Source: Clostridiales bacterium DTU032
Lineage (GTDB): Bacteria > Bacillota > Clostridia > Saccharofermentanales > DTU023
Length of the DNA stretch: 64,000 nt
Direction of reading: 5' to 3'
Assembly (NCBI GenBank): GCA_001512745.1
Contig: LFSM01000075.1
Coordinates: 3,727 to 67,726 of the forward strand
Numbering within the stretch: the stretch's first letter is position 1; every line of letters begins with the position of its first letter. The position numbers were made by a program, and so were the translations under genes. The notes beneath the pieces were generated by a model. It did no database searches, was not told the DNA's origin, and saw only the letters and a program-made list of their open reading frames with translations. Below, in pieces: positions 2,963-53,793 of this stretch.

Positions 2963-3490
2963 TTAATCCTCGTCCTCTTCTTTCCCTTCGTAATCCGCTC
3001 TGTCTTGCGCACTCAAGCTCTCGGTAAAAGAAGTAAAATCTATTTGAGAAGATGTCTGACCCTCCACCTGAGATTCCTGTTCAGTCACAAACTGTACCAA
3101 CTGCTCTGCAATCAATGAAGCTTCCTGGGCACTGATTCCCTCTTTTTCAAAAGTAGACGCTTCTCTTGCCTGACGTCTGGCTGATGGACGACGCTGTTCT
3201 TCCAGCATGTCCTCTGCACGCTTAGCTTCTGCCTCACGGCGGCTCGCTTCACGCTGTGCAATGATTTCGGGACGTTCCGGAATTGTAACTTCGTGTTTGC
3301 CCTGACGGTAAACTACTGCTCCGCTGCCGATTTCTTCACATGCCAGAGAAACCTGGTTTGGGGTTTTGGATTCAACCAAAGGTCTGGCACCATCTGTCAG
3401 CTGACGCGCTCTGCGGGCCGCAAACATGGCCAGGACGTATCTGTTCTCGGCTCTTGGAAGTAGTTGCTCCAGAGGAGGTTTTGTTAGCAT
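2963..3490 (-). CDS. rpoZ: DNA-directed RNA polymerase omega subunit with a long charged C-terminal extension
   Basis: The N-terminus [25 protein letters not shown] is the omega signature. AAGGAG SD is present. The gene sits in the conserved gmk-rpoZ position. Confidence 0.85.
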
Positions 3491-3571
3491 TTTTTGCTCC
3501 TTGTCATCTTAAAATCTATATAAATAAACAACGTTTTTAAATTTTTACATACCTTTAGGATTATATCTTTT

Positions 3572-4189
3572 TCACTGCATTCCGTCAATGAAGAGCCTTG
3601 ACGCACGGTGCTTTTCGGCCCAATAGATAGCTTCAATGTCTCGTACTGCCTGTAGCAGGTCATCATTCACAACCAGATAATCAAATTCAAAAGCTGAATT
3701 CATTTCCTCCCAGGATTCAGTCAGACGGGTCTGGATGATCTCCTGGCTTTCAGTAGCCCGATTTAAGAGTCGTTCTCTGAGCGCTGCTTCGGACGGAGGA
3801 ATGAGAAACACGAGAACCGCATCAGGATAACTTTCTTTTAGGGAAAGAGCACCTTTGACGGTCAGATCCAAGAGGACATTAATGCCCTCTCGGCGCATAC
3901 GCTCCAGAGGTGACCTGGGGGTACCATAATACTCATTGCAGTAGATGTCATGCTCCAGAATCTCACCTTCCGCAATCATTGCCTCAAACTCTGCCTTGGC
4001 CCGGAAATAATAGTGCACACCGTCTATTTCAGATTCTCTCGGAGCTCTGGTTGTTACTGATACGGAATGGCGGATGTCATTATAACGTTCACGCAAGGCA
4101 TTAATGACAGAATCCTTGCCCACACCAGACGGTCCCGATACAACGAGAGCAATACCTTCTTTTTGAACAATAGTCATGCGATCAGTCAT
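3572..4189 (-). CDS. gmk: Guanylate kinase
   Basis: P-loop [10 protein letters not shown] and the YYGTP motif are present. The start is set at ATG 4189, with GGAG 7 nt upstream and an ATGACTGA overlap with the remA stop. Confidence 0.9.
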
Positions 4190-39970: not shown

Positions 39971-40849
39971 TCAATAGCCCTTTGGCGGATAGGGCAGGCT
40001 AAGTTTGAAATAGTAAATATCCTTACCTTCGTGCCGGCGGCGGTTTATGGCACAACGCAGGCTGCCATGTTTCTCACAGTTCAATACCCAGGACCAGCGC
40101 CTCTGCTTTTTGTTGCTGATAATAGACTCATTAGTAGTCAGAAGGCTCTGGCAGGCCGGGCAGGTGAACTCTTGCTCTCTGATAGTTGCTTCTGCATTTC
40201 TTCCGGCTGTAACCGCTGTCTGCCAGGATTTTTCGCGCTGCAAAAAAGGATCGTAAAGGTAGGGCCGGAGAGTTTCTTTGCCTTCTTCTGTGCCCTTCTT
40301 TAACAATAGTGCATTAAGAATACGACCTGCGTAACGTGCGTCGTTAAGAGCATCATGAAAACTTAGTTCAGTTTCAATATTTAGAAACTCTAACGCATAC
40401 TCGATTGATCTTTGTTGGGAATTTTGTCCCCCCTCAGCCATATTGGCAAAGAATACCTGCAGATTTAGCGCTTTATTAAAAAAGGATGTATCCAGACTAT
40501 AGAAATCCATATTCTGTTTTAGAACCTGAGGGTCAGACAAACCCCAGGAGGCAAGAATCACATCCTCGCCGCAAAAATCGACAAACTTAGATAAGGCCAA
40601 AGGGAAAGGGTCTCCCTGGCTCAGACTTTCCTGGCTGAGCTGGGTGACCCTTGCAATATATTTATTTAGTTTTTTATATACTTGTGGCCTGACCTTGGCT
40701 GTGAATGTTGCAAGAGGCTCAATTGCAGCTGATAATTTAACAGCACCTATTTCTATAATTTCGAAGGGCAGTTCCGGGAGGTTTTCACTTGTTCCCGCTT
40801 TCCCGGGCGCAGCGCTGTTCCACTCCAAGTCAAAGACGACAAAACTCAC
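39971..40849 (-). CDS. DEDDh-type 3'-5' exonuclease (KapD/ERI-1-like) with a C-terminal Cys-rich region
   Basis: ExoI is VVFDLEWN, ExoII is ASWGLSDPQVL and ExoIII is HDALNDARY. The C-terminus carries CPAC...CEKHG. The GTG start overlaps the dnaJ stop (TAGTG). Confidence 0.75.
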   Translation of the reverse strand: MSFVVFDLEWNSAAPGKAGTSENLPELPFEIIEIGAVKLSAAIEPLATFTAKVRPQVYKKLNKYIARVTQLSQESLSQGDPFPLALSKFVDFCGEDVILASWGLSDPQVLKQNMDFYSLDTSFFNKALNLQVFFANMAEGGQNSQQRSIEYALEFLNIETELSFHDALNDARYAGRILNALLLKKGTEEGKETLRPYLYDPFLQREKSWQTAVTAGRNAEATIREQEFTCPACQSLLTTNESIISNKKQRRWSWVLNCEKHGSLRCAINRRRHEGKDIYYFKLSLPYPPKGY

Positions 40850-42000
40850 TATTTACTCCCAAATACATTACGTATTTTCTCCAGAAATCCTTTGCGTCCC
40901 TCGTAATGCTTCTCCGTCATGCTTTCCTCAAACTTACTGAGCATTTCCTTTTGTTTGCTATCGAGATTGCGGGGAACCTCCAAAATAACGCGGAATTTAT
41001 GATCACCGCGGCCATGACGGTTCAGATAAGGGATTCCCTTGCCACGGATGGTGAAGGTGTCATTGGGTTGAGTTCCTTCTTTCAGTTTATATGAAACCGT
41101 TCCGTCAATTGTCGGCACTTCAATTTCAGACCCTAAGGCTGCCTCAGCGTAAGTGATCGGCACTTCACAAAAAGTCATATTACCTTCGCGCGTAAAAATA
41201 GGATGCGGCCGAATATATATCTGAATGTAGAGATCACCGTAAGGTCCGCCGTTACGGCCTGGTTCACCTTCGTTTCGCAGAGTAAGCATCTCCCCTTCAT
41301 TTATACCTGCCGGTACGGTCACAAGAAGTGTTTTATCTTTCACCGTAGTACCGACACCTTTGCAGGTTTCACAGGGGTTTTCAATGATTTGACCACTGCC
41401 CTGACAACGTTGACAGCTACGGCTGGTCAGCATCTGGCCAAAGATGGTTTGCTGCTGAAGCTGTTCCTGGCCACTGCCATTACAGTTGGGGCAGATTGTA
41501 GGTTCGGAACCGTCAGCGGTACCTTTGCCCTTACATGTCGGGCAGACGTCGTCTTTGCGAATCTTGATCTTACGTTCTACACCGAAGGCCGCCTCTAAAA
41601 AATCAAGGTTCATGCGGTAGCGCAGGTTCGCGCCACGGCTAGGGGCTGTCGGCCGGCGAGACTGAGAAAAACCGGAGGAAAAGCCGCCAAAGCCAAAACC
41701 GCCAAAGATACTGTTGAACAAATCTTCCAGATCAACGCCAAAACCGGCACCGGCGCCTTGAAAGCCACTGGTGTCAACACCGGCATGACCATACTGGTCA
41801 TAGCGCTGCCGTTTTTCTGTATCGGATAATACTTCATAAGCTTCGTTTGCTTCCTGAAATTTTTCACTGGCCTGAGGATCATCCTTATTTACATCGGGAT
41901 GATATTTCTTGGCCAGCTTCCAGAAAGCTTTCTTAATCTCAGCAGAATCAGCATCTTTGCTAATGCCTAAAACTTCGTAATAGTCTCTTTTTGCTGCCAC
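40849..42000 (-). CDS. dnaJ: Molecular chaperone DnaJ
   Basis: It has a J-domain (DYYEVLG...KYHPD), a G/F region and four CxxCxGxG zinc-finger repeats. It uses a GTG start after AGGAG. Confidence 0.95.
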
Positions 42001-42117: not shown

Positions 42118-43956
42118 TTAATCCTCGTCAGTGCCAACATCTTTAAAATCAGCATCATATGTGCCTGGCTCATTGTCGGGAGCAGGTCCGTCAGGCTGTT
42201 GGGCCTGCTGTTGTTGCGCTGCTTGCTGGCTCATTTTTTCTGCAACCTTGTACAGCTCCTGATCCAAAGCGTCACTGTCTGTCTTCATTGCCTCAAAGTC
42301 ATCACTGGCATGACTTGCCTTCAATTTTTCCAAGGCAGCCTCTACTGCTTCGCGATCTTCACCCTCGTATAGTTTTGAAGTTTCTTCATCTTCCAGGAGG
42401 CGCTCAGTTGCACGAATCTTTGACTCTGCCTCATTTTTCACATGAACCTTTTCGGCACGCTCCTTATCCGCTTCAGCAAATTCTTCTGCTTCCTTTATAG
42501 CGCGTTCTATATCTGCATCACTCATATTACTTGAAGCAGTAATCGTTATGTTTTGTTTGCGTTTGGTTGTCATATCAATCGCTGTAACGTTAACAATACC
42601 ATTAGCATCAATATCAAAGCTTACTTCAATCTGAGGTGTGCCTGCACGTGCCGGAGGAATACCGTCGAGGAAGAACCTGCCCAGAGTTCTGTTGTCAGAA
42701 GCCATGGGGCGTTCACCCTGCAGGATGTGGACTTCAACCTGAGTCTGGTTGTCAGCAGCAGTACTGAACACCTGCTTTTTGCTAGTCGGGATCGTGGTAT
42801 TGCGTTCAATCATACGTGTCATTACACCGCCGAGAGTCTCGAGACCCAGGGACAAAGGTGTGACGTCAAGCAGTACCATCTCATCGACATCACCGGAAAG
42901 AATACCACCCTGGATAGCTGCACCCAGCGCAACACACTCATCGGGGTTAATGCCTTTGAAGGGCTCCTGGTTAAAGAAAGTCTTAACTGCTTCCTGAACA
43001 GCGGGTATACGTGTTGAGCCGCCAACCAGCAAAATCTTATTAATCTGGCCGGGCTCTAATCCGGCATCCTTCATTGCTGTACGGACTGGAGCCATGGTCG
43101 CTTCAACCAGGTCCCCGGTCATATCGTTAAATTTTGCCCGGGTCAGGTTTAAGTCCAGATGTTTGGGACCATCCTGGCCTGAAGAAATGTAAGGCAGGCT
43201 GATATTGCTGGTCAGGACACTGGAAAGTTCAATCTTTGCTTTTTCTGCAGCATCACGCAAACGCTGCACGGCAAACTTGTCTTTTGAAAGATCGACAGCT
43301 TCCTCATTTTTCATTTCCTGAATCATCCAGTCAACGATGCGGTTATCAAAATCGTCACCACCCAGTTTGGTGTTACCTGAGGTAGATTTGACATCAAAAA
43401 CACCATCGCCCAGTTCCAGAATTGATACGTCAAAGGTTCCGCCGCCCAGGTCATAAATCAGTATTGTCTGGTTATCCTCTTTTTCCAGACCATAGGCCAA
43501 TGAGGCTGCTGTCGGTTCGTTAATAATACGGTCCACCTTCAGTCCCGCAATACGACCGGCATCTTTGGTTGCCTGGCGCTGTGAATCTGAGAAATATGCA
43601 GGCACCGTAATTACTGCCTGGCTCACTGGCTCACCCAGATAAGCCTCAGCGTCAGCCTTCAATTTCTGCAGTATCATTGCTGATACTTCCGGTGGCGTAT
43701 AAGCTTTGCCATCGATAACATGTTTATTATTAGAACCCATTTCACGCTTGATTGATGTTATTGTGCGATCCGGGTTTCTTTGTGCCTGGTTCTTAGCTAC
43801 CTGACCAACCAGACGTTCTCCTTCTTTAGTAAAAGCAACAACAGATGGTGTCGTCCGTTGCCCTTCCGCGTTAGGAATAATAACCGGCTCGCCGCCTTCC
43901 ATAACGGAAACAACCGAGTTGGTTGTGCCTAAGTCTATTCCGATAATCTTTGCCAT
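42118..43956 (-). CDS. dnaK: Molecular chaperone DnaK
   Basis: [26 protein letters not shown] and LVGGSTRIP are present. Confidence 0.97.
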
Positions 43957-45784: not shown

Positions 45785-45811
45785 TTAGCACTCTATGTCT
45801 TCGAGTGCTAA
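45785..45811 (-). promoter_or_regulatory. CIRCE operator (HrcA binding site)
   Basis: TTAGCACTC-N9-GAGTGCTAA is a perfect match to the consensus. It lies between the -10 and the hrcA SD. Confidence 0.95.
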
Positions 45812-47144: not shown

Positions 47145-48107
47145 CTATTTGGCTTCTTTATTGTCGCCGGTATCAACATCAGCGAGCATTTCTTTCACAG
47201 AAACGGCTAAACCCGCTAAACTTTGAATCTCCGAAGGAATTATGATCTTGGTAGCACGTCCGTCAGCTACTTTTATGAATGTTTCCAGGCTCTTAAGTGC
47301 GATCAAAGAATCATCTGCCTGCACATCTTTAATCATCTGGAGTCCTTTGGCAGTGGCCGCCTGCAAATTCAGAATAGCCTGAGCTTCACCGTCAGACTCA
47401 CGAATTGCAGTTTCCTTTCTGGCATCAGCACGCAGGATGGCTGCCTCTTTATCACCTTCTGCTACACGGATCGCAGCTTCTTTCTGGCCTTCGGCAATTA
47501 AAATACTCTCGCGTTTCTCACGCTCAGCTTTCATCTGACGTTCCATTGCTGTCTGAATATCCTGAGGAGGCAAAATGTTCTTCAGTTCAACACGATTCAC
47601 CTTAATTCCCCAGGGGTCGGTGGCTTCGTCTAAGGTGACACGCATACGTGTATTAATAACATCACGGGAAGTAAGGGTCTCGTCCAGTTCCAGATCACCG
47701 ATAATATTACGTAATGTAGTAGCAGTGAGGTTTTCTATTGCCACAATCGGGTTTTCAATACCATAGCTATATAGGACGGGGTCAACGATTTGGAAAAAGA
47801 TAACCGTATCAATTTGCATGGTAACGTTATCTTTAGTAATAACCGGCTGAGGCGGGAAATCAGCCACTCGTTCTTTCAGTGAGATCCGGCGGGCAATACG
47901 GTCAAAGAATGGCAGCTTCATATGAATTCCTGATTGCCAGGTGGTCTTATAAGTACCCAGACGTTCAATTACATAAACGTTAGCTTGTGGCACTACGCGG
48001 ACATTTTTGATCAAAAGCAGGAAAATAAAAATAATAGCTGCCATAAGCACGATCATTTCCCAGATACCTGCTGCTCCACTCTGGAGGGTTGTGTAAATTA
48101 AGCTCAT
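47145..48107 (-). CDS. SPFH/Band-7 (stomatin-like) membrane protein
   Basis: It has an N-terminal TM helix, then the SPFH core (VVPQANVYVIERLG...ITKDNV...RNIIGDLELDETLTSRD) and a coiled-coil EAAIRVAEG region. Confidence 0.88.
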   Translation of the reverse strand: MSLIYTTLQSGAAGIWEMIVLMAAIIFIFLLLIKNVRVVPQANVYVIERLGTYKTTWQSGIHMKLPFFDRIARRISLKERVADFPPQPVITKDNVTMQIDTVIFFQIVDPVLYSYGIENPIVAIENLTATTLRNIIGDLELDETLTSRDVINTRMRVTLDEATDPWGIKVNRVELKNILPPQDIQTAMERQMKAEREKRESILIAEGQKEAAIRVAEGDKEAAILRADARKETAIRESDGEAQAILNLQAATAKGLQMIKDVQADDSLIALKSLETFIKVADGRATKIIIPSEIQSLAGLAVSVKEMLADVDTGDNKEAK

Positions 48108-50274: not shown

Positions 50275-51816
50275 ATGGCGGGCACAAGTCACTTTCTAAA
50301 GCATAAGAAAATATCATGCTGTCTTAAAGCTGCTCTGCTCTTTCTTGTTTTCACAAGCATCTTTAGTATGCTTACAGGCCTCCTCTTGCTAAGGGTCCAA
50401 ACAGTTGCTGCCGCAGAAAGCGATAGTGAAAGTATGGCAGCTGCTTTTGTCCCTTCCTTTAATCTGCCTGCCGGCCTGGTCTTCAACGCACCCGAGCGCC
50501 CTCTCCTGTACAGCCATAATGCGGATGTTCCCTTGGAAATTCCGGCAGCTTCACGCTTAATGGCTCTGCTGGTCAGTGCAGACAAGGTCGGTCCTGATGA
50601 GCTGATCAGTATTTCCGCTCAGGTGGCGGCTCTCGCATCAGTCGAGGTTAATTCCAACCTCGATCTGGAAAGCGGTATGACTTTACCTTTTCGCTACCTT
50701 GCCCTGAGAATGATCTTGCAAAACTCTGATGCCGCTGCTCTGGCTATAGCTGAACACCTTACTGCCGGCGAAGAGGGTTTTCTGAAGATGATGCAACAAA
50801 GAGCATCTGAGCTGGGTATGACAAATACAGAATTTTACACCTTGCTGCTTTCTCAGACAGAGCGCAAAAATCCTGCACCTGATATTTTCTCAGACCCGGA
50901 AATAGACTGGGGACAACTTGTCTTTGAAAAAGATGAAAATCAGGAATTCCAGGCGATAATTGATGGCCAGTCTGTAGCTGATATCATGCCTGAATACGGG
51001 CATGAGCAAAAGTTAACCGCAACAAGCAGCCTGAATGATCTTTCCCGCTTAGCCCAGGCCTTACACTCCAGCAGGTCAGCGATCGAATATCTGCGCGTTA
51101 CTGAACAGCTGCTTTCCCTTCGTGTAGAAAACAGCGACCGGGTAATACCGGTACGTTCCAGCATTTCTCGCCTGTTTACACTTTCAGAAGGTAATATTGA
51201 TGCCGCCTATAATCATCGCTCTGATCGCTTCTCCCTGACTTTAAGTTACGGTGAGACGGTTGACGGAATACCTGTTACAACTCTGCTTCTCTCTGCCGGC
51301 CAAAGTCTAATGATCGATGAAACTCTGAAACTCTATGAAAAAATCAATCAGCATTATCAGCGTACAGCTTTAACAGAAGCAGGGGTCCTTGTTCCGGGCC
51401 ACAGCGAAAAAACTGAAAGCGGCGAGACTTTTGGTCTGCAGTATTTGGATACGGTTTATTATGTTCATCCAAAAGATAACTTCTATCTGAAAGATGATGT
51501 TATTTATGTCGGTAACGCTCCCTACCTCTTACCAATTCAAAAGGGCAGTATGACCGGTCAGATAATTTTTGAGATGCTTGACGGTACCAGAATCCCTGTG
51601 CGTATCGGACCTGACCGCGATATTATCTCTTCTAATACAATTCTGGCCAGACTGGTCAGCCAACTTTACAACAATGAGAATCTGGGACAGATTATTATCG
51701 GACTGGCAGCATTAATCTGCCTTATCCTTGCAATTCTCTTAATCAGGGAAATCGTCAAACTGTTTTACTGGCGCCGTATGAGGCGGCTGGAACGGGCTGG
51801 AAATCCAAAACACTGA
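50275..51816 (+). CDS. PBP5/S11-like domain protein lacking the catalytic motifs, with a C-terminal membrane anchor
   Basis: It aligns by eye to the PBP5 fold (IPAASRLMALLVS...; LQNSDAAALAIAEHL; FLKMMQQRASELGMTNTEF). SxxK reads SRLM and SxN reads QNS. A signal/TM helix is present at both the N- and C-terminus. Confidence 0.65.
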   Translation: MAGTSHFLKHKKISCCLKAALLFLVFTSIFSMLTGLLLLRVQTVAAAESDSESMAAAFVPSFNLPAGLVFNAPERPLLYSHNADVPLEIPAASRLMALLVSADKVGPDELISISAQVAALASVEVNSNLDLESGMTLPFRYLALRMILQNSDAAALAIAEHLTAGEEGFLKMMQQRASELGMTNTEFYTLLLSQTERKNPAPDIFSDPEIDWGQLVFEKDENQEFQAIIDGQSVADIMPEYGHEQKLTATSSLNDLSRLAQALHSSRSAIEYLRVTEQLLSLRVENSDRVIPVRSSISRLFTLSEGNIDAAYNHRSDRFSLTLSYGETVDGIPVTTLLLSAGQSLMIDETLKLYEKINQHYQRTALTEAGVLVPGHSEKTESGETFGLQYLDTVYYVHPKDNFYLKDDVIYVGNAPYLLPIQKGSMTGQIIFEMLDGTRIPVRIGPDRDIISSNTILARLVSQLYNNENLGQIIIGLAALICLILAILLIREIVKLFYWRRMRRLERAGNPKH

Positions 51817-52365
51817 TTACTTTCTTCTCCGTAGCCAGGGATGTATTCTTTCGAAAAATAATAGCTCATAGTTTAAAAGAACTTGCCGATAGATAAACAG
51901 CATAAGCTGGAAGATGGCAAAAATTATGAGCCAGATCAGCCAGTTTGCCAGATTAAATCGATTCATGATCAGGATATCCAACCTGCTGATTTTTACTGCT
52001 GCTATTAGCAAGGGGCTCATGATTATGTGTGACAGCAGATATTGCAGGAACTTAGCAAGCCCGCGATGATAGAAATAAAGAATCAAAAGTGATAATGGTG
52101 CTGCAAAAACGGCAAAGACTGCAGCCTGAATCAATCCCGGATAAGTCAGACTCAGAATAAAAATACCCAGAGTTACCAAAACAGCTCCGGATATATTCAA
52201 TTCAAAAGATGCTGTTGCAACCACCAGTGAAGCCAGGAGGAACAAAAAAAGGCGTCCCGTTGGCAGGACGCCTGAGAGAATAACAAAAATCCAGCCCAAT
52301 GCTATTAGTATTCCACTTATGGCAATTGTATATGCAGATCTCGAAGTTTTTTTATCGGAGTGCAT
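51817..52365 (-). CDS. Polytopic membrane protein of unknown function (5-6 TM helices)
   Basis: The 182-aa product has a hydrophobic profile and lies 33 nt downstream of the J-domain gene on the same strand. Confidence 0.6.
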   Translation of the reverse strand: MHSDKKTSRSAYTIAISGILIALGWIFVILSGVLPTGRLFLFLLASLVVATASFELNISGAVLVTLGIFILSLTYPGLIQAAVFAVFAAPLSLLILYFYHRGLAKFLQYLLSHIIMSPLLIAAVKISRLDILIMNRFNLANWLIWLIIFAIFQLMLFIYRQVLLNYELLFFERIHPWLRRRK

Positions 52366-52397
52366 AGTTTCCTACCAAAATAAGATCCCGCATCTGC

Positions 52398-52799
52398 TTA
52401 GCAGCAAAGGCAGAGGTCTCCGCCCATCTGTTCGCAGCAGGCATCTGCACAGCAAAGGCAGGTCATTTGCGAACAACAATTGTCAGCTGAAGAACGGTAA
52501 TAGGGAGACTGGTTCTGTTGTTGCTGCTGTTGACCATAGGGGCTGCCATAACTGCCATAGTTACCATAAGGACTTTGATACGGTGGTCTCTGATATGGTC
52601 CTTGCTGCTGCCCCCCTTTTGTTAGCTGGTCATAGGCATTGTTAACTTCCTTCATTTTTTCTTCAGCCAGCTCTTTCATCGTGGGATCTTGATATTTATC
52701 CGGATGGTATTTCTTCGTTTGCTCAAGATAAGCATCACGGATCTCTTTCTCCGTAGCCCCGCGTCTTACACCTAGAACATCATAAGGGTCTTTTGCCAT
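52398..52799 (-). CDS. J-domain protein with a Q/P/Y-rich linker and a C-terminal cysteine string
   Basis: The J-domain is DPYDVLGV...KKYHPDK...AYDQL, with an intact HPD. The linker is GQQQGPYQRPPYQSPYGNYGSYGSPYGQQQQQQNQSPYY. The tail has 10 Cys in 26 aa. GGGAGA SD is present. Confidence 0.85.
   Translation of the reverse strand: MAKDPYDVLGVRRGATEKEIRDAYLEQTKKYHPDKYQDPTMKELAEEKMKEVNNAYDQLTKGGQQQGPYQRPPYQSPYGNYGSYGSPYGQQQQQQNQSPYYRSSADNCCSQMTCLCCADACCEQMGGDLCLCC
52401..52478 (-). other. Cysteine-string tail (CCSQMTCLCCADACCEQMGGDLCLCC)
   Basis: This is read directly from the translation. There are four CC doublets plus two single Cys in the last 26 residues. Confidence 0.9.
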
Positions 52800-52832
52800 T
52801 TTTTAATTCTCCCAACCTGAACTTGAGTAATT

Positions 52833-53684
52833 TTATATCCGGGGCAGCTCAATTCCTGCCAAAACGCGTTCCCGGGTCCGCACTAAACCAATGGTGGCGA
52901 TATTTCCAATAATTGCGCCATCTCTCTGGTAAGGCAAGAGGGCCAGTAAACGGTCAATTTCTTCTTCACATTCTTTGAGGGTCTCCTCAACAAAAATCCT
53001 GCTGTCAGGCTCGGAAAATTTGAGTAGCGGATTCCACTGCTTATTATGAAGATCGTCTTCACGATCGTCAAATGCATCCATCAGGTAGATCCATTTGCCC
53101 AAAGCAAAACCAACGTCAGGCAAGACTCTGATCAGGAGTTGGCGGTCAGGATGCTCCAGAATCTTTGCACCTTCAGCAAAAACTTCTGCCAGAAGCCGGC
53201 CGAAGATATCAGCTGCAGCCGGATCATAATCACCTTTTTCAATTTCACTGAGCTCATGCAGGAAAGCTTCAATTTTCGCAGTCATTTCCAGATAGAGGCG
53301 TCCGGCTTTTTTGCCCGATCTTCTCAGCAAAAGACTTTGAAAACGTCCTTTAATGGGATTTTCGTCCTCAGCATTATCAAGTGCGGAAAAGTAAGCCAGA
53401 ATAATGCTGCCATCAGCAGCAAAATCCAGGGCCGGATGCTTCTTGCTGATCACTTTCTTATTGATCGGATTTAAAACACAGCCTTCCCTCACCATCTCAC
53501 TGTCCTCTGAGGACAGCGAGAGTAAAAGTGCTGCCAAAAAAGTCATATCGTAAGTAACTGTAAGGCGTGGCAGATTGCCATATCGCTCTTTGATAGTTTT
53601 GCACAAACCACAGTAAATGGAGCGATAGCGGGTAAAATCACGCATCAACAATAATTCTTTTTCAGGTCGAACATAGCCAAACAT
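52833..53684 (-). CDS. DUF5685-like protein (unknown function)
   Basis: The N-terminus MFGYVRPEKELLLMRDFTRYRSIYCGLCKTIKERYG matches my recollection of the DUF5685 signature. The rest is predicted helical, with an acidic cluster WIYLMDAFDDREDDLHNKQWNPL. Confidence 0.6.
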   Translation of the reverse strand: MFGYVRPEKELLLMRDFTRYRSIYCGLCKTIKERYGNLPRLTVTYDMTFLAALLLSLSSEDSEMVREGCVLNPINKKVISKKHPALDFAADGSIILAYFSALDNAEDENPIKGRFQSLLLRRSGKKAGRLYLEMTAKIEAFLHELSEIEKGDYDPAAADIFGRLLAEVFAEGAKILEHPDRQLLIRVLPDVGFALGKWIYLMDAFDDREDDLHNKQWNPLLKFSEPDSRIFVEETLKECEEEIDRLLALLPYQRDGAIIGNIATIGLVRTRERVLAGIELPRI

Positions 53685-53793
53685 AAATGATCTCGTATAA
53701 GACTTAAGCTAGTATTAGTCTGCTTGTTCATTGCATGGTATCATGAACAAGCTCAAATAACTAACATTGATTTAGACAAGGAAGTGAACTTAT

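Follow-up and report, generated by a model that had tools for sequence, protein, structure and literature searches.

Three adjacent minus-strand genes of Clostridiales bacterium DTU032, encoding a DUF5685 protein, a J-domain protein with a cysteine-rich tail and a polytopic membrane protein, make up an obligate unit, one operon-encoded module that is inherited together throughout the class Clostridia. From its structural model, the DUF5685 protein is predicted with high confidence to adopt a class I isoprenoid-synthase fold, an assignment that is new here. The genes were examined within a window of 64,000 nucleotides (contig LFSM01000075.1, forward-strand positions 3,727 to 67,726), to which all coordinates below refer. 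A previous sequence-only reading of the same DNA had put the three genes forward as an uncharacterised system and had named three outcomes that would refute it: lack of synteny in related genomes, lack of tail conservation in orthologs, and a confident match of the first gene to a characterised family. Our analysis supports a conserved system of this kind, and the proposal survives all three tests.

A three-gene unit inherited together in Clostridia

Gene 1 (52833..53684, minus strand) encodes the 283-aa DUF5685 protein, gene 2 (52398..52799, minus strand) the 133-aa J-domain protein with its C-terminal Cys motif, and gene 3 (51817..52365, minus strand) a 182-aa membrane protein of an unnamed family defined by iterative HMM searching. 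The three open reading frames and their spacers, 33 nt between genes 1 and 2 and 32 nt between genes 2 and 3, were confirmed as originally described, and a Shine-Dalgarno-like GGGAGA or AGGA precedes each of the two downstream genes. The operon and the divergent GlnRS gene have in common a 109-nt intergenic region (53685..53793), the presumed promoter, in which an inverted repeat of 10 nt, without mismatch, occupies 53722-53752; the sigma-70 search called no consensus site in this region. The dnaK gene, which had been placed about 9 kb away, lies at 42118-43956 in an hrcA-grpE-dnaK-dnaJ cluster 8-10 kb from the operon, and the genuine dnaJ of the window occupies 40849-42000. Heat-shock regulation of the operon via CIRCE was rejected, since no CIRCE element is found upstream of the operon and the only one in the window is at hrcA.

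In a forward survey of 80 species-level genomes collected through DUF5685, only the three families of the operon were conserved at the locus (78, 72 and 71 loci). The gene for the tailed J protein lies directly downstream of DUF5685 in 77 of the 80 genomes, often overlapping it by 4-8 nt, and iterative HMM searching unites 70 of 72 downstream ORFs with the gene 3 protein of the window. The reverse survey, an independent degenerate DNA scan of metagenomes for the Cys-tail motif, found DUF5685 upstream in 67 of 68 loci and the membrane gene downstream in 84 of 89. Adjacency of the three families recurs in about 70-78 of the 80 genomes, all of different species, and again in the reverse scan, and it persists despite changed gene order in variant loci; the arrangement is far beyond chance, and the synteny set as a refuting test holds across Clostridia. 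That the three genes are functionally unrelated and adjoin only fortuitously is already effectively refuted: nothing speaks for it beyond the missing direct functional data, whereas the three families are the only conserved neighbors across the 80 genomes, both search directions agree, start and stop codons often overlap, and the unit survives changes of gene order.

At least 593 species-level Clostridia genomes carry the module, among them gut Lachnospiraceae, Oscillospiraceae, Clostridium sporogenes, C. tetanomorphum and C. butyricum. The flanks seen in the neighbor survey are housekeeping genes, e.g., GlnRS, a pgsA-like gene, aldolase, MutS2 and DnaE. Other than the three families, the most frequent flanks are CYTH (14 loci) and the pgsA-like gene (10 loci), and no further neighbor is conserved in the 80 genomes, so the surroundings give no functional hint. 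An anti-phage defence island or phage origin was rejected given the housekeeping flanks and the lack of any PADLOC match. For the three operon proteins, PHROGs returned generic J-domain matches only, and nothing specific to any of them was found in NCBIfam, PADLOC or PHROGs. Annotation of the three products goes no further than "hypothetical" or "J domain-containing." In the literature searched, DUF5685/PF18937 occurs in one domain list, for C. difficile R20291, and nothing further; a published J-protein census has no class matching gene 2; and we found no paper on the three-gene combination, in agreement with the earlier statement that no function had been described for it.

Predicted fold and Asp-rich motifs of DUF5685

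The gene 1 product matches PF18937 (DUF5685) over profile positions 1-269 of 272 (E=1.4e-71; 241.6 bits, with the cut-off at 26.7). The family is likewise matched by all 33 aligned relatives, and its earlier naming from the N-terminal sequence was correct. By sequence, 52833-53684 matches this DUF only and no characterised family. No polyprenyl (PF00348), terpene or SQS match was obtained from Pfam for the 33 members, even at E<=10, and DUF5685 is not recognisable in this set as phytoene or squalene synthase. A DUF5685 profile searched against PDB sequences gave sub-threshold matches only (best E=0.67), and hhalign against E. coli IspB returned a 30-residue local match at the second motif described below (E=0.063, prob 0.9%), which serves for register only and is no proof of homology. 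Taken alone, none of these sequence-level links between DUF5685 and prenyl synthases reaches significance.

The fold assignment rests on the AF2 model (pLDDT 95.6, pTM 0.92), which is soluble and all-alpha. The top 50 PDB matches of this model in Foldseek are all prenyl-diphosphate enzymes, mostly trans-polyprenyl synthases, with the best at prob 1.00 and TM 0.5-0.64; a few cyclases (5nx4, 2ps6, 9e2l) are among them. The best structural neighbors, with TM up to 0.64, are the trans-polyprenyl diphosphate synthases E. coli IspA and IspB, Sulfolobus HexPPS (2azk) and 4jxy/4jyx. Like these enzymes, DUF5685 has two Asp-rich motifs at equivalent helix ends, the second in an altered form, which line up in register including DDxxDxxxD in alignments that are not themselves significant, and aromatics before the first motif. 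It differs from them in that identity is only ~12-15%, PF00348 does not match, the motifs for IPP are missing, and a beta hairpin and an invariant Cys triad are present as extra elements. The isoprenoid-synthase fold had gone unnoticed in the sequence-only reading.

The first Asp-rich motif, D103-N-A-E-D107 (53364..53378, minus strand; consensus DDxxD), lies at the C-terminal end of helix 84-106. All 80 DUF5685 sequences share D103 and D107, while D104, and hence the canonical DDxxD, is present in 43/80; the window protein has DNAED. HMMER sets this motif on the FARM DDVVD of 4jxy in an alignment that is non-significant alone (E=0.67). Aromatic residues occupy the two positions before the motif in 78/80 and 69/80 sequences, a feature that is also typical of short-chain prenyl synthases. 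The second motif, D203-A-F-D-D207-R-E-D-D211 (53052..53078, minus strand), lies at the C-terminal end of helix 181-206 and turns out to be the acidic cluster DAFDDREDD that had been pointed out earlier. D203, A204 and D207 are invariant and D211 is found in 71/80 sequences, such that the pattern is D203-A204-x-x-D207-x-x-x-D211, with an invariant Ala in place of the second Asp of DDxxD; D203, D207 and D211 line up with the first Asp, the last Asp and the one after it in the DDxxDxxxD of 4jxy, IspA and IspB. N218 is invariant in the 80 sequences. In the AF2 model each motif sits where a long helix ends on its C-terminal side, which is also the location of FARM and SARM.

In class I terpene cyclases and synthases, DDxxD is joined by (N/D)Dxx(S/T)xxxE, the NSE/DTE triad, which a later helix carries. 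The 1-5-9 spacing of D203, D207 and D211 is the same as that of this triad, with no match to a cyclase sequence family. In this fold an allylic prenyl diphosphate is held, through Mg2+ and its diphosphate, by two Asp-rich motifs, and DUF5685 keeps both, the second with the Ala substitution noted above. The IPP-site motifs GGKRxRP, RRG, KT and GK..K[ST] are absent from the DUF5685 alignment when compared with IspA and IspB and, together with the lack of a PF00348 match, this indicates that DUF5685 is not a chain-elongating synthase.

The extra Cys triad, C25, C28 and C69 (53478..53612, minus strand), was identified from invariant alignment columns and the secondary structure of the model; nearby position 72 is His in 63/80 sequences and Asn in the window protein. 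The triad is probably a Zn clip joining helix 1 and the beta hairpin, with metal binding being inferred. Judged on helix topology in the model, this Cys3(His) site probably has a structural role and lies away from the Asp motifs. Activation of a thiolate by Zn at this triad was considered and is not relied on, given its probable distance from those motifs.

It is conceivable, if unlikely, that DUF5685 has no isoprenoid role at all, and that it retains the fold and the acidic motifs while binding some other diphosphate or metal ligand or serving as a non-catalytic scaffold. The system would then work in metal or thiol homeostasis or in redox sensing at the membrane, with DnaK as effector. The sub-significant sequence similarity to prenyl enzymes, the invariant Cys triad of DUF5685 and the thiol-rich tail of gene 2 are compatible with this. 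However, the Asp positions that are invariant are precisely the ones which coordinate Mg2+-diphosphate in this fold, and it is difficult to see why this should be so if no ligand of that kind is bound. Both the aromatics before the first motif, as in short-chain prenyl synthases, and the use of prenyl diphosphates by all 50 top structural neighbors argue against it as well.

The Cys-tailed J protein and the membrane protein

Residues 4-61 of the gene 2 product (52617..52790, minus strand) form a J domain (PF00226, 58.8 bits vs. a cut-off of 27.8, E=5.8e-16). The canonical J domain and intact HPD that had been read from the translation are both present, the latter at 52698-52706 (H32, P33, D34) and invariant in 22 orthologs, and the domain appears functional-looking by sequence; there are no data on stimulation of DnaK ATPase. 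Pfam detects the J domain alone, with the G/F region, CxxCxGxG zinc finger and C-terminal domains of type I DnaJ absent, and NCBIfam DnaJ models score at most 57 bits against cut-offs of 338-619 and cover residues 1-81 only. The Fe-S co-chaperone HscB was rejected as an identity (TIGR00714, 16.5 bits vs. a cut-off of 46.75, J region only).

The J domain is followed by a low-complexity Q/P/Y/G linker (52479..52616, minus strand), which is variable in length and composition among orthologs. The linker is present as had been noted, but it is a lineage-specific replacement: most other lineages have a TPR-like segment at this position, with a TPR_2 match in the C. sporogenes ortholog. The C-terminal end is a 26-aa tail with 10 Cys, CCSQMTCLCCADACCEQMGGDLCLCC (52401..52478, minus strand), exactly as counted before. 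Across the family this tail follows the motif C-x2-C-x2-L-[WCY]-C-x-D-x2-C-E-C-x-G-G-D-L-I-x-C-C, always at the exact C-terminus, gap-free in 55 of 77 genome loci and in a shorter variant elsewhere. Six near-invariant Cys at fixed spacing are accompanied by invariant D-15, E-11 and G-G-D; the tail usually ends in CC, and its aromatic position is Trp in 34/55, Cys in 9 (including the window protein) and Tyr in 7. Typically 7-11 Cys are found in the last 60 residues across 194 orthologs, and the fixed spacing holds to ~40% identity and beyond, which meets the test of tail conservation. A phmmer search with the 36-residue tail against 1.8 billion representatives gave 2 matches, presumably due to composition filtering, and is uninformative on tail proteins without a J domain, which were instead detected by the degenerate DNA scan of metagenomes.

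The window lineage has lost the TPR segment and keeps the Cys tail, while four loci without a J domain keep the TPR and an expanded poly-Cys tail, with runs of 5-6 consecutive Cys, between or beside the DUF5685 and TM genes. TPR or J domain was lost in different lineages and the tail was kept in each; of all the features of gene 2, only the Cys tail is universal.

The gene 3 product has about 6 hydrophobic helices, in line with the 5-6 TM helices counted earlier, and the window protein has no match in Pfam or NCBIfam. Family-wide searches gave no match for 9 canonical members in Pfam (E<=1), for 66 members in NCBIfam (a single member reached MPN527 ECF at E=0.15) or for a 66-sequence profile against PDB sequences, and no motif of any known post-prenylation enzyme was found. 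The window lineage has lost most of the conserved polar residues of the family (FFGxYGxIKxxxE, KxxxFN, YDY). For the AF2 model (pLDDT 72, pTM 0.61), the best PDB match in Foldseek is the ECF S component RibU (5kc4_E, E=0.35, prob 0.96, TM 0.51-0.56), which is weak; 3p5n and 4huq_S are further ECF S-component matches, and soluble helical bundles with no relation to them make up the rest.

Solitary S-component genes of Firmicutes are often found beside genes that use their substrate. Gene 3 might by analogy encode such a solitary S component of the ECF type, taking up a small molecule that DUF5685 would prenylate in the cytoplasm, with the tail protein as an accessory. RibU and FolT are the only membrane-protein PDB neighbors of the model (TM ~0.5), and the size (~170-180 aa in S components) and six-helix topology fit. 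We nonetheless consider this quite improbable, as the structural match is weak and rests on a model of limited confidence, gene 3 belongs to no S-component family by sequence, and the window lineage keeps the operon despite having lost the conserved polar residues. It also gives no role to the tail, the one universal feature of gene 2.

Possible roles of the Cys tail and the meaning of the module

Cysteine-string protein is an Hsp70 co-chaperone whose C-terminal cysteines carry membrane-targeting information. Ydj1, DNAJA and plant J2/J3 are also Hsp70 co-chaperones with C-terminal Cys that carry such information, and farnesylated HSP40 offers a precedent for a lipidated J protein (PMC5769771, PMC10939075). 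The parallel to DnaJC5 drawn in the sequence-only reading stands as architecture, since gene 2 has the same order of J domain, linker and Cys-rich end, but it is an analogy only: no search detected homology beyond the J domain. The gene 2 tail differs from its eukaryotic counterparts in being a rigid motif with conserved Asp, Glu and Gly instead of a loose string or CaaX box, and the eukaryotic modifying enzymes (DHHC, CaaX farnesyltransferase) have folds different from that of DUF5685.

A precedent for the enzyme is given by the IPPS-fold peptide prenyltransferases ComQ, StheQ and PalQ (PMC5331326, bioRxiv 10.64898/2026.08.29.745113, PMC10853753, PMC13290415). The ComQ/ComX, StheQ/StheX and PalQ systems have, as DUF5685 does, the all-alpha trans-isoprenyl-diphosphate-synthase fold and the first Asp-rich motif without an IPP elongation site (PMC5331326; bioRxiv 10.64898/2026.08.29.745113; PMC10853753). 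In both cases the enzyme gene is directly upstream of the partner gene, often overlapping it, and the key feature of the partner lies at or near the C-terminus. The likeness has limits: no relationship between ComQ relatives and DUF5685 is evident at the sequence level, the second Asp motif is invariant in DUF5685 and a metal-free "pseudo" motif in StheQ, and no ComP/ComA-type signalling partner is present at the DUF5685 operon. ComQ-type enzymes prenylate Trp of short secreted pheromone or RiPP precursors (PMC13290415), unlike the DUF5685 partner, a cytoplasmic J/TPR protein of 130-230 aa with a Cys motif and no conserved Trp.

Given the genetic logic of ComQ/ComX, in which an IPPS-fold enzyme attaches a prenyl group close to the C-terminus of the protein that an adjacent, overlapping gene encodes, we infer that the gene 2 protein may be the acceptor for DUF5685; there are no prenyl-transfer data. 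DUF5685 would ionise a short prenyl diphosphate and pass the prenyl group to an acceptor other than IPP, the most economical one being the Cys tail of the neighbor-encoded protein. Through its S-prenylated tail the TPR/J-domain protein would be tethered at the cytoplasmic side of the membrane, next to the gene 3 protein, where the J domain would recruit DnaK; the tethered protein would be a bacterial counterpart of farnesylated DNAJA/Ydj1 and of palmitoylated cysteine-string protein. We tentatively favor such ComQ-like tethering of a co-chaperone by prenyl transfer onto the tail, as an inference that stands about level with a metal-binding tail, discussed below. In its favor stand the predicted fold with its Asp-rich motifs and without an IPP site, the constant pairing of genes 1 and 2, and the universality of a tail that is always found at the exact C-terminus. 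Slightly more doubtful is the full proposal that DUF5685 is a bacterial protein-cysteine S-prenyltransferase that multiply prenylates the C-terminal Cys motif of its neighbor, yielding a lipid-anchored DnaK recruiter, or a TPR adaptor in the J-less lineages, with a dedicated membrane protein as its docking site. Prenyl transfer onto the tail has against it that all trans-IDS-like peptide prenyltransferases characterised so far act on Trp and not on Cys (PMC13290415), with Trp at the aromatic tail position in only 34/55 sequences, that the sequence links to prenyl synthases are below significance, that the Cys3(His) site of the enzyme is probably remote from its Asp motifs, and that gene 3 has no post-prenylation motif. 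Moreover, the rigid six-Cys spacing with invariant D, E and GGD resembles a knot for metal binding more than a loose string for lipidation, and Cys serving as mere lipid anchors are disfavored, as their number and position should then drift.

The tail may accordingly be read, just as tentatively, as a metal-binding module (Zn, e.g., a binuclear Zn-thiolate knot, or Fe-S) and not as a substrate; the preference for metal or Fe-S binding in the sequence-only reading is thus plausible, as an inference. The tail would act as a regulatory subunit, or one that carries a cofactor, in non-covalent contact with DUF5685, the membrane protein or both. A small isoprenoid lipid would then be made or processed by DUF5685 and bound or inserted by the membrane protein, and the J domain, where present, would add DnaK-dependent assembly or holdase control, as ORANGE does for phytoene synthase. 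Besides the fixed Cys spacing and the invariant D-15, E-11 and G-G-D, this is supported by the C-E-C-x-G-G turn of the tail, which we take to be reminiscent of the zinc knuckles (CxxCxGxG) in DnaJ. As a rule, characterised class I enzymes yield small molecules, and gene 3 weakly resembles the ECF S components, which bind small molecules. Plant ORANGE (DnaJE1) provides a precedent at the membrane, being a Cys-rich DnaJ-type chaperone coupled physically and functionally to phytoene synthase, a class I isoprenoid-fold enzyme that it controls (PMC5025653, PMC12063368). ORANGE has a DnaJ zinc-finger domain and its own transmembrane helices without a J domain, whereas the clostridial operon combines a J domain with a Cys motif of unrelated type and encodes the membrane protein separately. 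Against a metal-binding tail, the J-less lineages show that the module can do without the chaperone function but not without the tail, and a defined metal site would not usually contain 5-6 Cys in a row, as their tails do. A class I enzyme also has no obvious need of a redox step, and no other biosynthetic gene is conserved nearby.

Whether by prenyl transfer or by metal binding, the pairing of DUF5685 with a Cys-tailed Hsp70 co-chaperone points to something undescribed in bacteria. The predicted fold and its Asp-rich metal-binding motifs turn DUF5685 into a testable enzyme hypothesis, and the operon becomes a concrete candidate for protein lipidation or for a metal-dependent partnership at the bacterial membrane. 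The possible outcomes are endogenous protein S-prenylation or a new metal-thiolate partner for a terpenoid-type enzyme. If prenyl transfer onto the tail is true, it would be the first endogenous Cys-prenylation system in bacteria, with an S-prenyltransferase built on an isoprenoid-synthase fold and not on the alpha-alpha-barrel of the eukaryotic CaaX type, convergent with farnesylated DNAJA/Ydj1 and palmitoylated cysteine-string protein. Either outcome would describe a specialised branch of the bacterial DnaK network and of isoprenoid biochemistry in anaerobes.

The three-gene operon in the window

Three minus-strand genes make up an operon in which the spacers are 33 and 32 nt long and both downstream genes are preceded by a Shine-Dalgarno-like sequence. 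Gene 1 (52833-53684) encodes a 283-aa protein that matches Pfam DUF5685 along its full length (E=1.4e-71). Gene 2 (52398-52799) encodes a 133-aa protein with a Pfam J domain (E=5.8e-16, HPD present), a linker rich in Q/P/Y/G and a tail of 26 residues, 10 of them Cys, and gene 3 (51817-52365) encodes a 182-aa membrane protein with about six hydrophobic helices and no match in Pfam or NCBIfam. In public annotations the three are, in order, a "hypothetical protein", a "J domain-containing protein" and a "hypothetical protein". A sequence-only reading of this DNA had given the coordinates, strand, lengths and spacers of these genes exactly, and its description of the gene-2 architecture and of a polytopic gene-3 product agrees with the results above. 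Its assignment to DUF5685 was correct, as the end-to-end Pfam match demonstrates, and the dnaK gene that it placed 9 kb away belongs to an hrcA-grpE-dnaK-dnaJ cluster 8-10 kb from the operon.

A perfect CIRCE element (45785-45811; TTAGCACTC-N9-GAGTGCTAA) lies upstream of the hrcA-grpE-dnaK-dnaJ cluster. Since no CIRCE was found near the three-gene operon in the window, the gene-2 J protein is probably outside the HrcA regulon, as far as sequence can indicate. Between the operon and a divergent GlnRS gene, a 109-nt region holds a perfect 10-nt inverted repeat (53722-53752; GCTTGTTCAT-N11-ATGAACAAGC), which is partly kept in the closest relative, locus L001, with two changes, one giving a G-U pair and one a mismatch. 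A strong terminator-like hairpin on the minus strand (52250-52273; 10-bp stem with 7 G-C pairs, followed by TTTTTTT) sits about 90 nt inside the gene-3 ORF, across conserved LPTGRLF codons; it could act as an internal attenuator downstream of the J gene, or be there by chance. Convergent with the operon is a plus-strand gene (50275-51816) for a 513-aa S11 D-Ala-D-Ala carboxypeptidase-domain protein that has a hydrophobic helix at its C-terminus; the stop codons of this gene and gene 3 are contiguous, with 0 nt between, leaving no space for terminators, and the same neighbour is present in 8 related loci. An SPFH/Band 7 (flotillin-like) gene (47145-48107, minus) lies 4 kb from the operon, and other loci showed no conserved linkage of such a gene to the module. 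In Bacillus, flotillin microdomains need isoprenoid-derived lipids.

Conservation of the module

GTDB was scanned with a DUF5685 profile, one genome per species, which yielded at least 593 relatives; the best 80 loci were kept. All of these best 80 are titled Clostridia or unclassified Bacillota MAGs, and they include Clostridium, Anaerovorax, Ruminiclostridium, Lutispora, Lachnospiraceae and Oscillospiraceae. Within this best-80 set, a J-domain gene lies directly downstream of DUF5685 in 77 loci, and clustering of flanking ORFs recovered DUF5685 in 78 loci, the J protein in 72 and a membrane protein of ~170 aa in 71. Only these three families are conserved, the next commonest neighbour being found in 14 of the 80, and an iterative HMM placed the window's membrane protein in one family with 70 of 72 downstream ORFs. 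The loci that depart from the arrangement are L022, where the contig ends; L045, whose DUF5685 is a truncated remnant; L008, with an inserted gene; and L033, where the order is permuted. The insertion, in one Clostridia MAG (L008:5017-5649), separates the DUF5685 and J genes, and its 210-aa product has a signal sequence like that of lipoproteins.

The association was also approached from the tail. A degenerate DNA pattern of the tail motif plus stop codon, run against metagenome contigs, returned 120 loci. Counting only loci with enough flank, a J domain was present within the tail ORF in 99/104, DUF5685 lay upstream on the same strand in 67/68, and the membrane family lay downstream in 84/89. 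Look-ups starting from two J proteins agree with the three-gene picture, with gene overlaps of 4-8 nt. The co-occurrence that the sequence-only reading had proposed for counting is therefore borne out in both directions, and the three genes form an obligate unit.

Searches of the module against PADLOC and phage families gave no specific match and its flanks are housekeeping genes; an island origin was thus rejected and the module is taken to be core chromosomal. The only recurrent flanks are two genes that directly precede DUF5685 in the same orientation, a CYTH-domain gene (14 loci) and a pgsA-like CDP-alcohol phosphatidyltransferase gene (10 loci), as at L012:438-998, L043:3374-3925 and similar loci. 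The pgsA-like flank hints faintly at a link to membrane lipids.

Fold and motifs of the DUF5685 protein

Structure prediction of 52833-53684, likewise suggested in the sequence-only reading, was carried out with AlphaFold2 on a 33-sequence alignment and gave an all-alpha model with one beta hairpin (pLDDT 95.6, pTM 0.92). In Foldseek searches against the PDB, all 50 of the 50 best matches were prenyl-diphosphate-using enzymes, mostly trans-polyprenyl diphosphate synthases (4jxn, E=7e-4; 2azk_A, TM 0.62; 4jyx, TM 0.64), the remainder being a few terpene cyclases, MoeN5 and one UbiA-type enzyme. Invariant residues among 80 sequences include D103, D107, D203, A204, D207 and N218; 71/80 have D211, and 43/80 have a canonical DDxxD at positions 103-107. 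The model puts the first Asp motif at the C-terminal end of helix 84-106 and the second at that of helix 181-206, both of them long helices, like the FARM and SARM of prenyl synthases. In HMMER searches of the PDB and in an hhalign comparison with E. coli IspB, D203-A-x-x-D207-x-x-x-D211 falls over the DDxxDxxxD of the synthases, and HMMER also aligns D103xxxD107 with their DDxxD; these alignments were used only to fix the register because they are not significant alone (HMMER E=0.67, hhalign probability 0.9%).

DUF5685 lacks the motifs that form the IPP site in elongating synthases (GGKRxRP, RRG, KT, GK…K[ST]), and Pfam isoprenoid families gave no match to it, not even a weak one. We read DUF5685 as a divergent protein with the class I isoprenoid-synthase fold that is probably catalytic and does not elongate chains, its activity being inferred. 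An invariant Cys triad (C25, C28, C69), accompanied at residue 72 by His in 63/80 sequences and by Asn in the window protein, is probably a Zn clip, for which there are no binding data.

The cysteine tail, the membrane protein and a possible mechanism

The gene-2 J domain is canonical. At the exact C-terminus, 55 of 77 genome loci carry the gap-free tail D-x-C-x2-C-x2-L-[W/C/Y]-C-x-D-x2-C-E-C-x-G-G-D-L-I-x-C-C, and Anaerovoracaceae-like genomes have a shorter variant (…C-A-D-x2-C-D-C-I). Most orthologs have a TPR-like segment between J domain and tail, which in the window's lineage is replaced by a low-complexity linker. Four loci (L033, L105, L120, L191) encode J-less variants that keep the TPR segment and whose tails have grown to 15-20 Cys, including stretches of 5-6 Cys in a row. 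Three of these variants remain next to DUF5685 and the membrane gene, the order at L033 (tail ORF 3182-3586) being tail protein, DUF5685, membrane protein; at L120 no DUF5685 was seen and the contig stops directly after the tail. Gene 2 therefore has a single universal feature, the Cys tail, and it is most likely through this tail that it is functionally linked to DUF5685. In a stop-to-stop frame at L147:199-901, a hydrophobic, transporter-like start replaces the J domain ahead of the TPR half and Cys tail; the contig is only 1.4 kb long, and either a genuine fusion or an assembly chimera may explain the frame.

The gene-3 products form an unnamed family of membrane proteins, ~170 aa long with six helices, in which the motifs FFGxYGxIKxxxE, KxxxFN and YDY are conserved. 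Most of the conserved polar residues are gone in the window's lineage (51817-52365 compared with related loci L001, L002, L004 and L007), where FFGxYGxIKxxxE has become FAAPLSLLILYFY and YDY has become YRQ. Together with the loss of the gene-2 TPR segment, this may mean that the system is reduced in this lineage or has shifted in function. Sequence-profile searches of the family found nothing. The AlphaFold2 model is moderate (pLDDT 72), and no membrane proteins other than ECF S components (RibU, E=0.35, TM ~0.5) appear among its PDB neighbors, a predicted likeness that serves as a lead and not an assignment.

The analysis establishes how the operon is built, that its genes obligately occur together, the fold, the conserved motifs, the HPD, and that the tail is both universal and C-terminal; the following steps are inferred. 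DUF5685 would bind Mg2+ and an allylic prenyl diphosphate and pass the prenyl group to a non-IPP acceptor. Aromatic residues occur at two positions ahead of its first motif. In FPP synthases, aromatics preceding the first Asp motif go with a short chain, and by this analogy they hint at a short prenyl chain here. The acceptor that we favor, if only tentatively, is the Cys tail encoded next door. It rests on a likeness to ComQ/ComX, StheQ/StheX and PalQ, in which IPPS-fold enzymes prenylate a near-C-terminal residue of the adjacent gene's product (PMC5331326; bioRxiv 10.64898/2026.08.29.745113; PMC10853753). The lipidated gene-2 protein would sit at the membrane beside the gene-3 product and recruit DnaK, in parallel to farnesylated HSP40 (PMC5769771, PMC10939075).

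Two points count against prenylation of the tail: the characterized trans-IDS-like peptide prenyltransferases all target Trp (PMC13290415), and the rigid Cys/Asp/Glu/Gly pattern looks like a metal-binding knot. We consider it about equally likely that the tail binds Zn or Fe-S and is a non-covalent partner of an isoprenoid-lipid enzyme, with the J domain providing chaperone control of that enzyme as OR does for phytoene synthase (PMC5025653, PMC12063368). Any model with chaperoning at its core is weakened by the J-less lineages.

The literature searched mentions DUF5685 in one paper only, as a list entry, and does not contain PF18937, and a large J-protein census describes no Cys-tail class, consistent with the sequence-only reading that no function had been described. 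The components come from known superfamilies; their combination and function are undescribed, and confirmation of cysteine prenylation would bring substantial upside.
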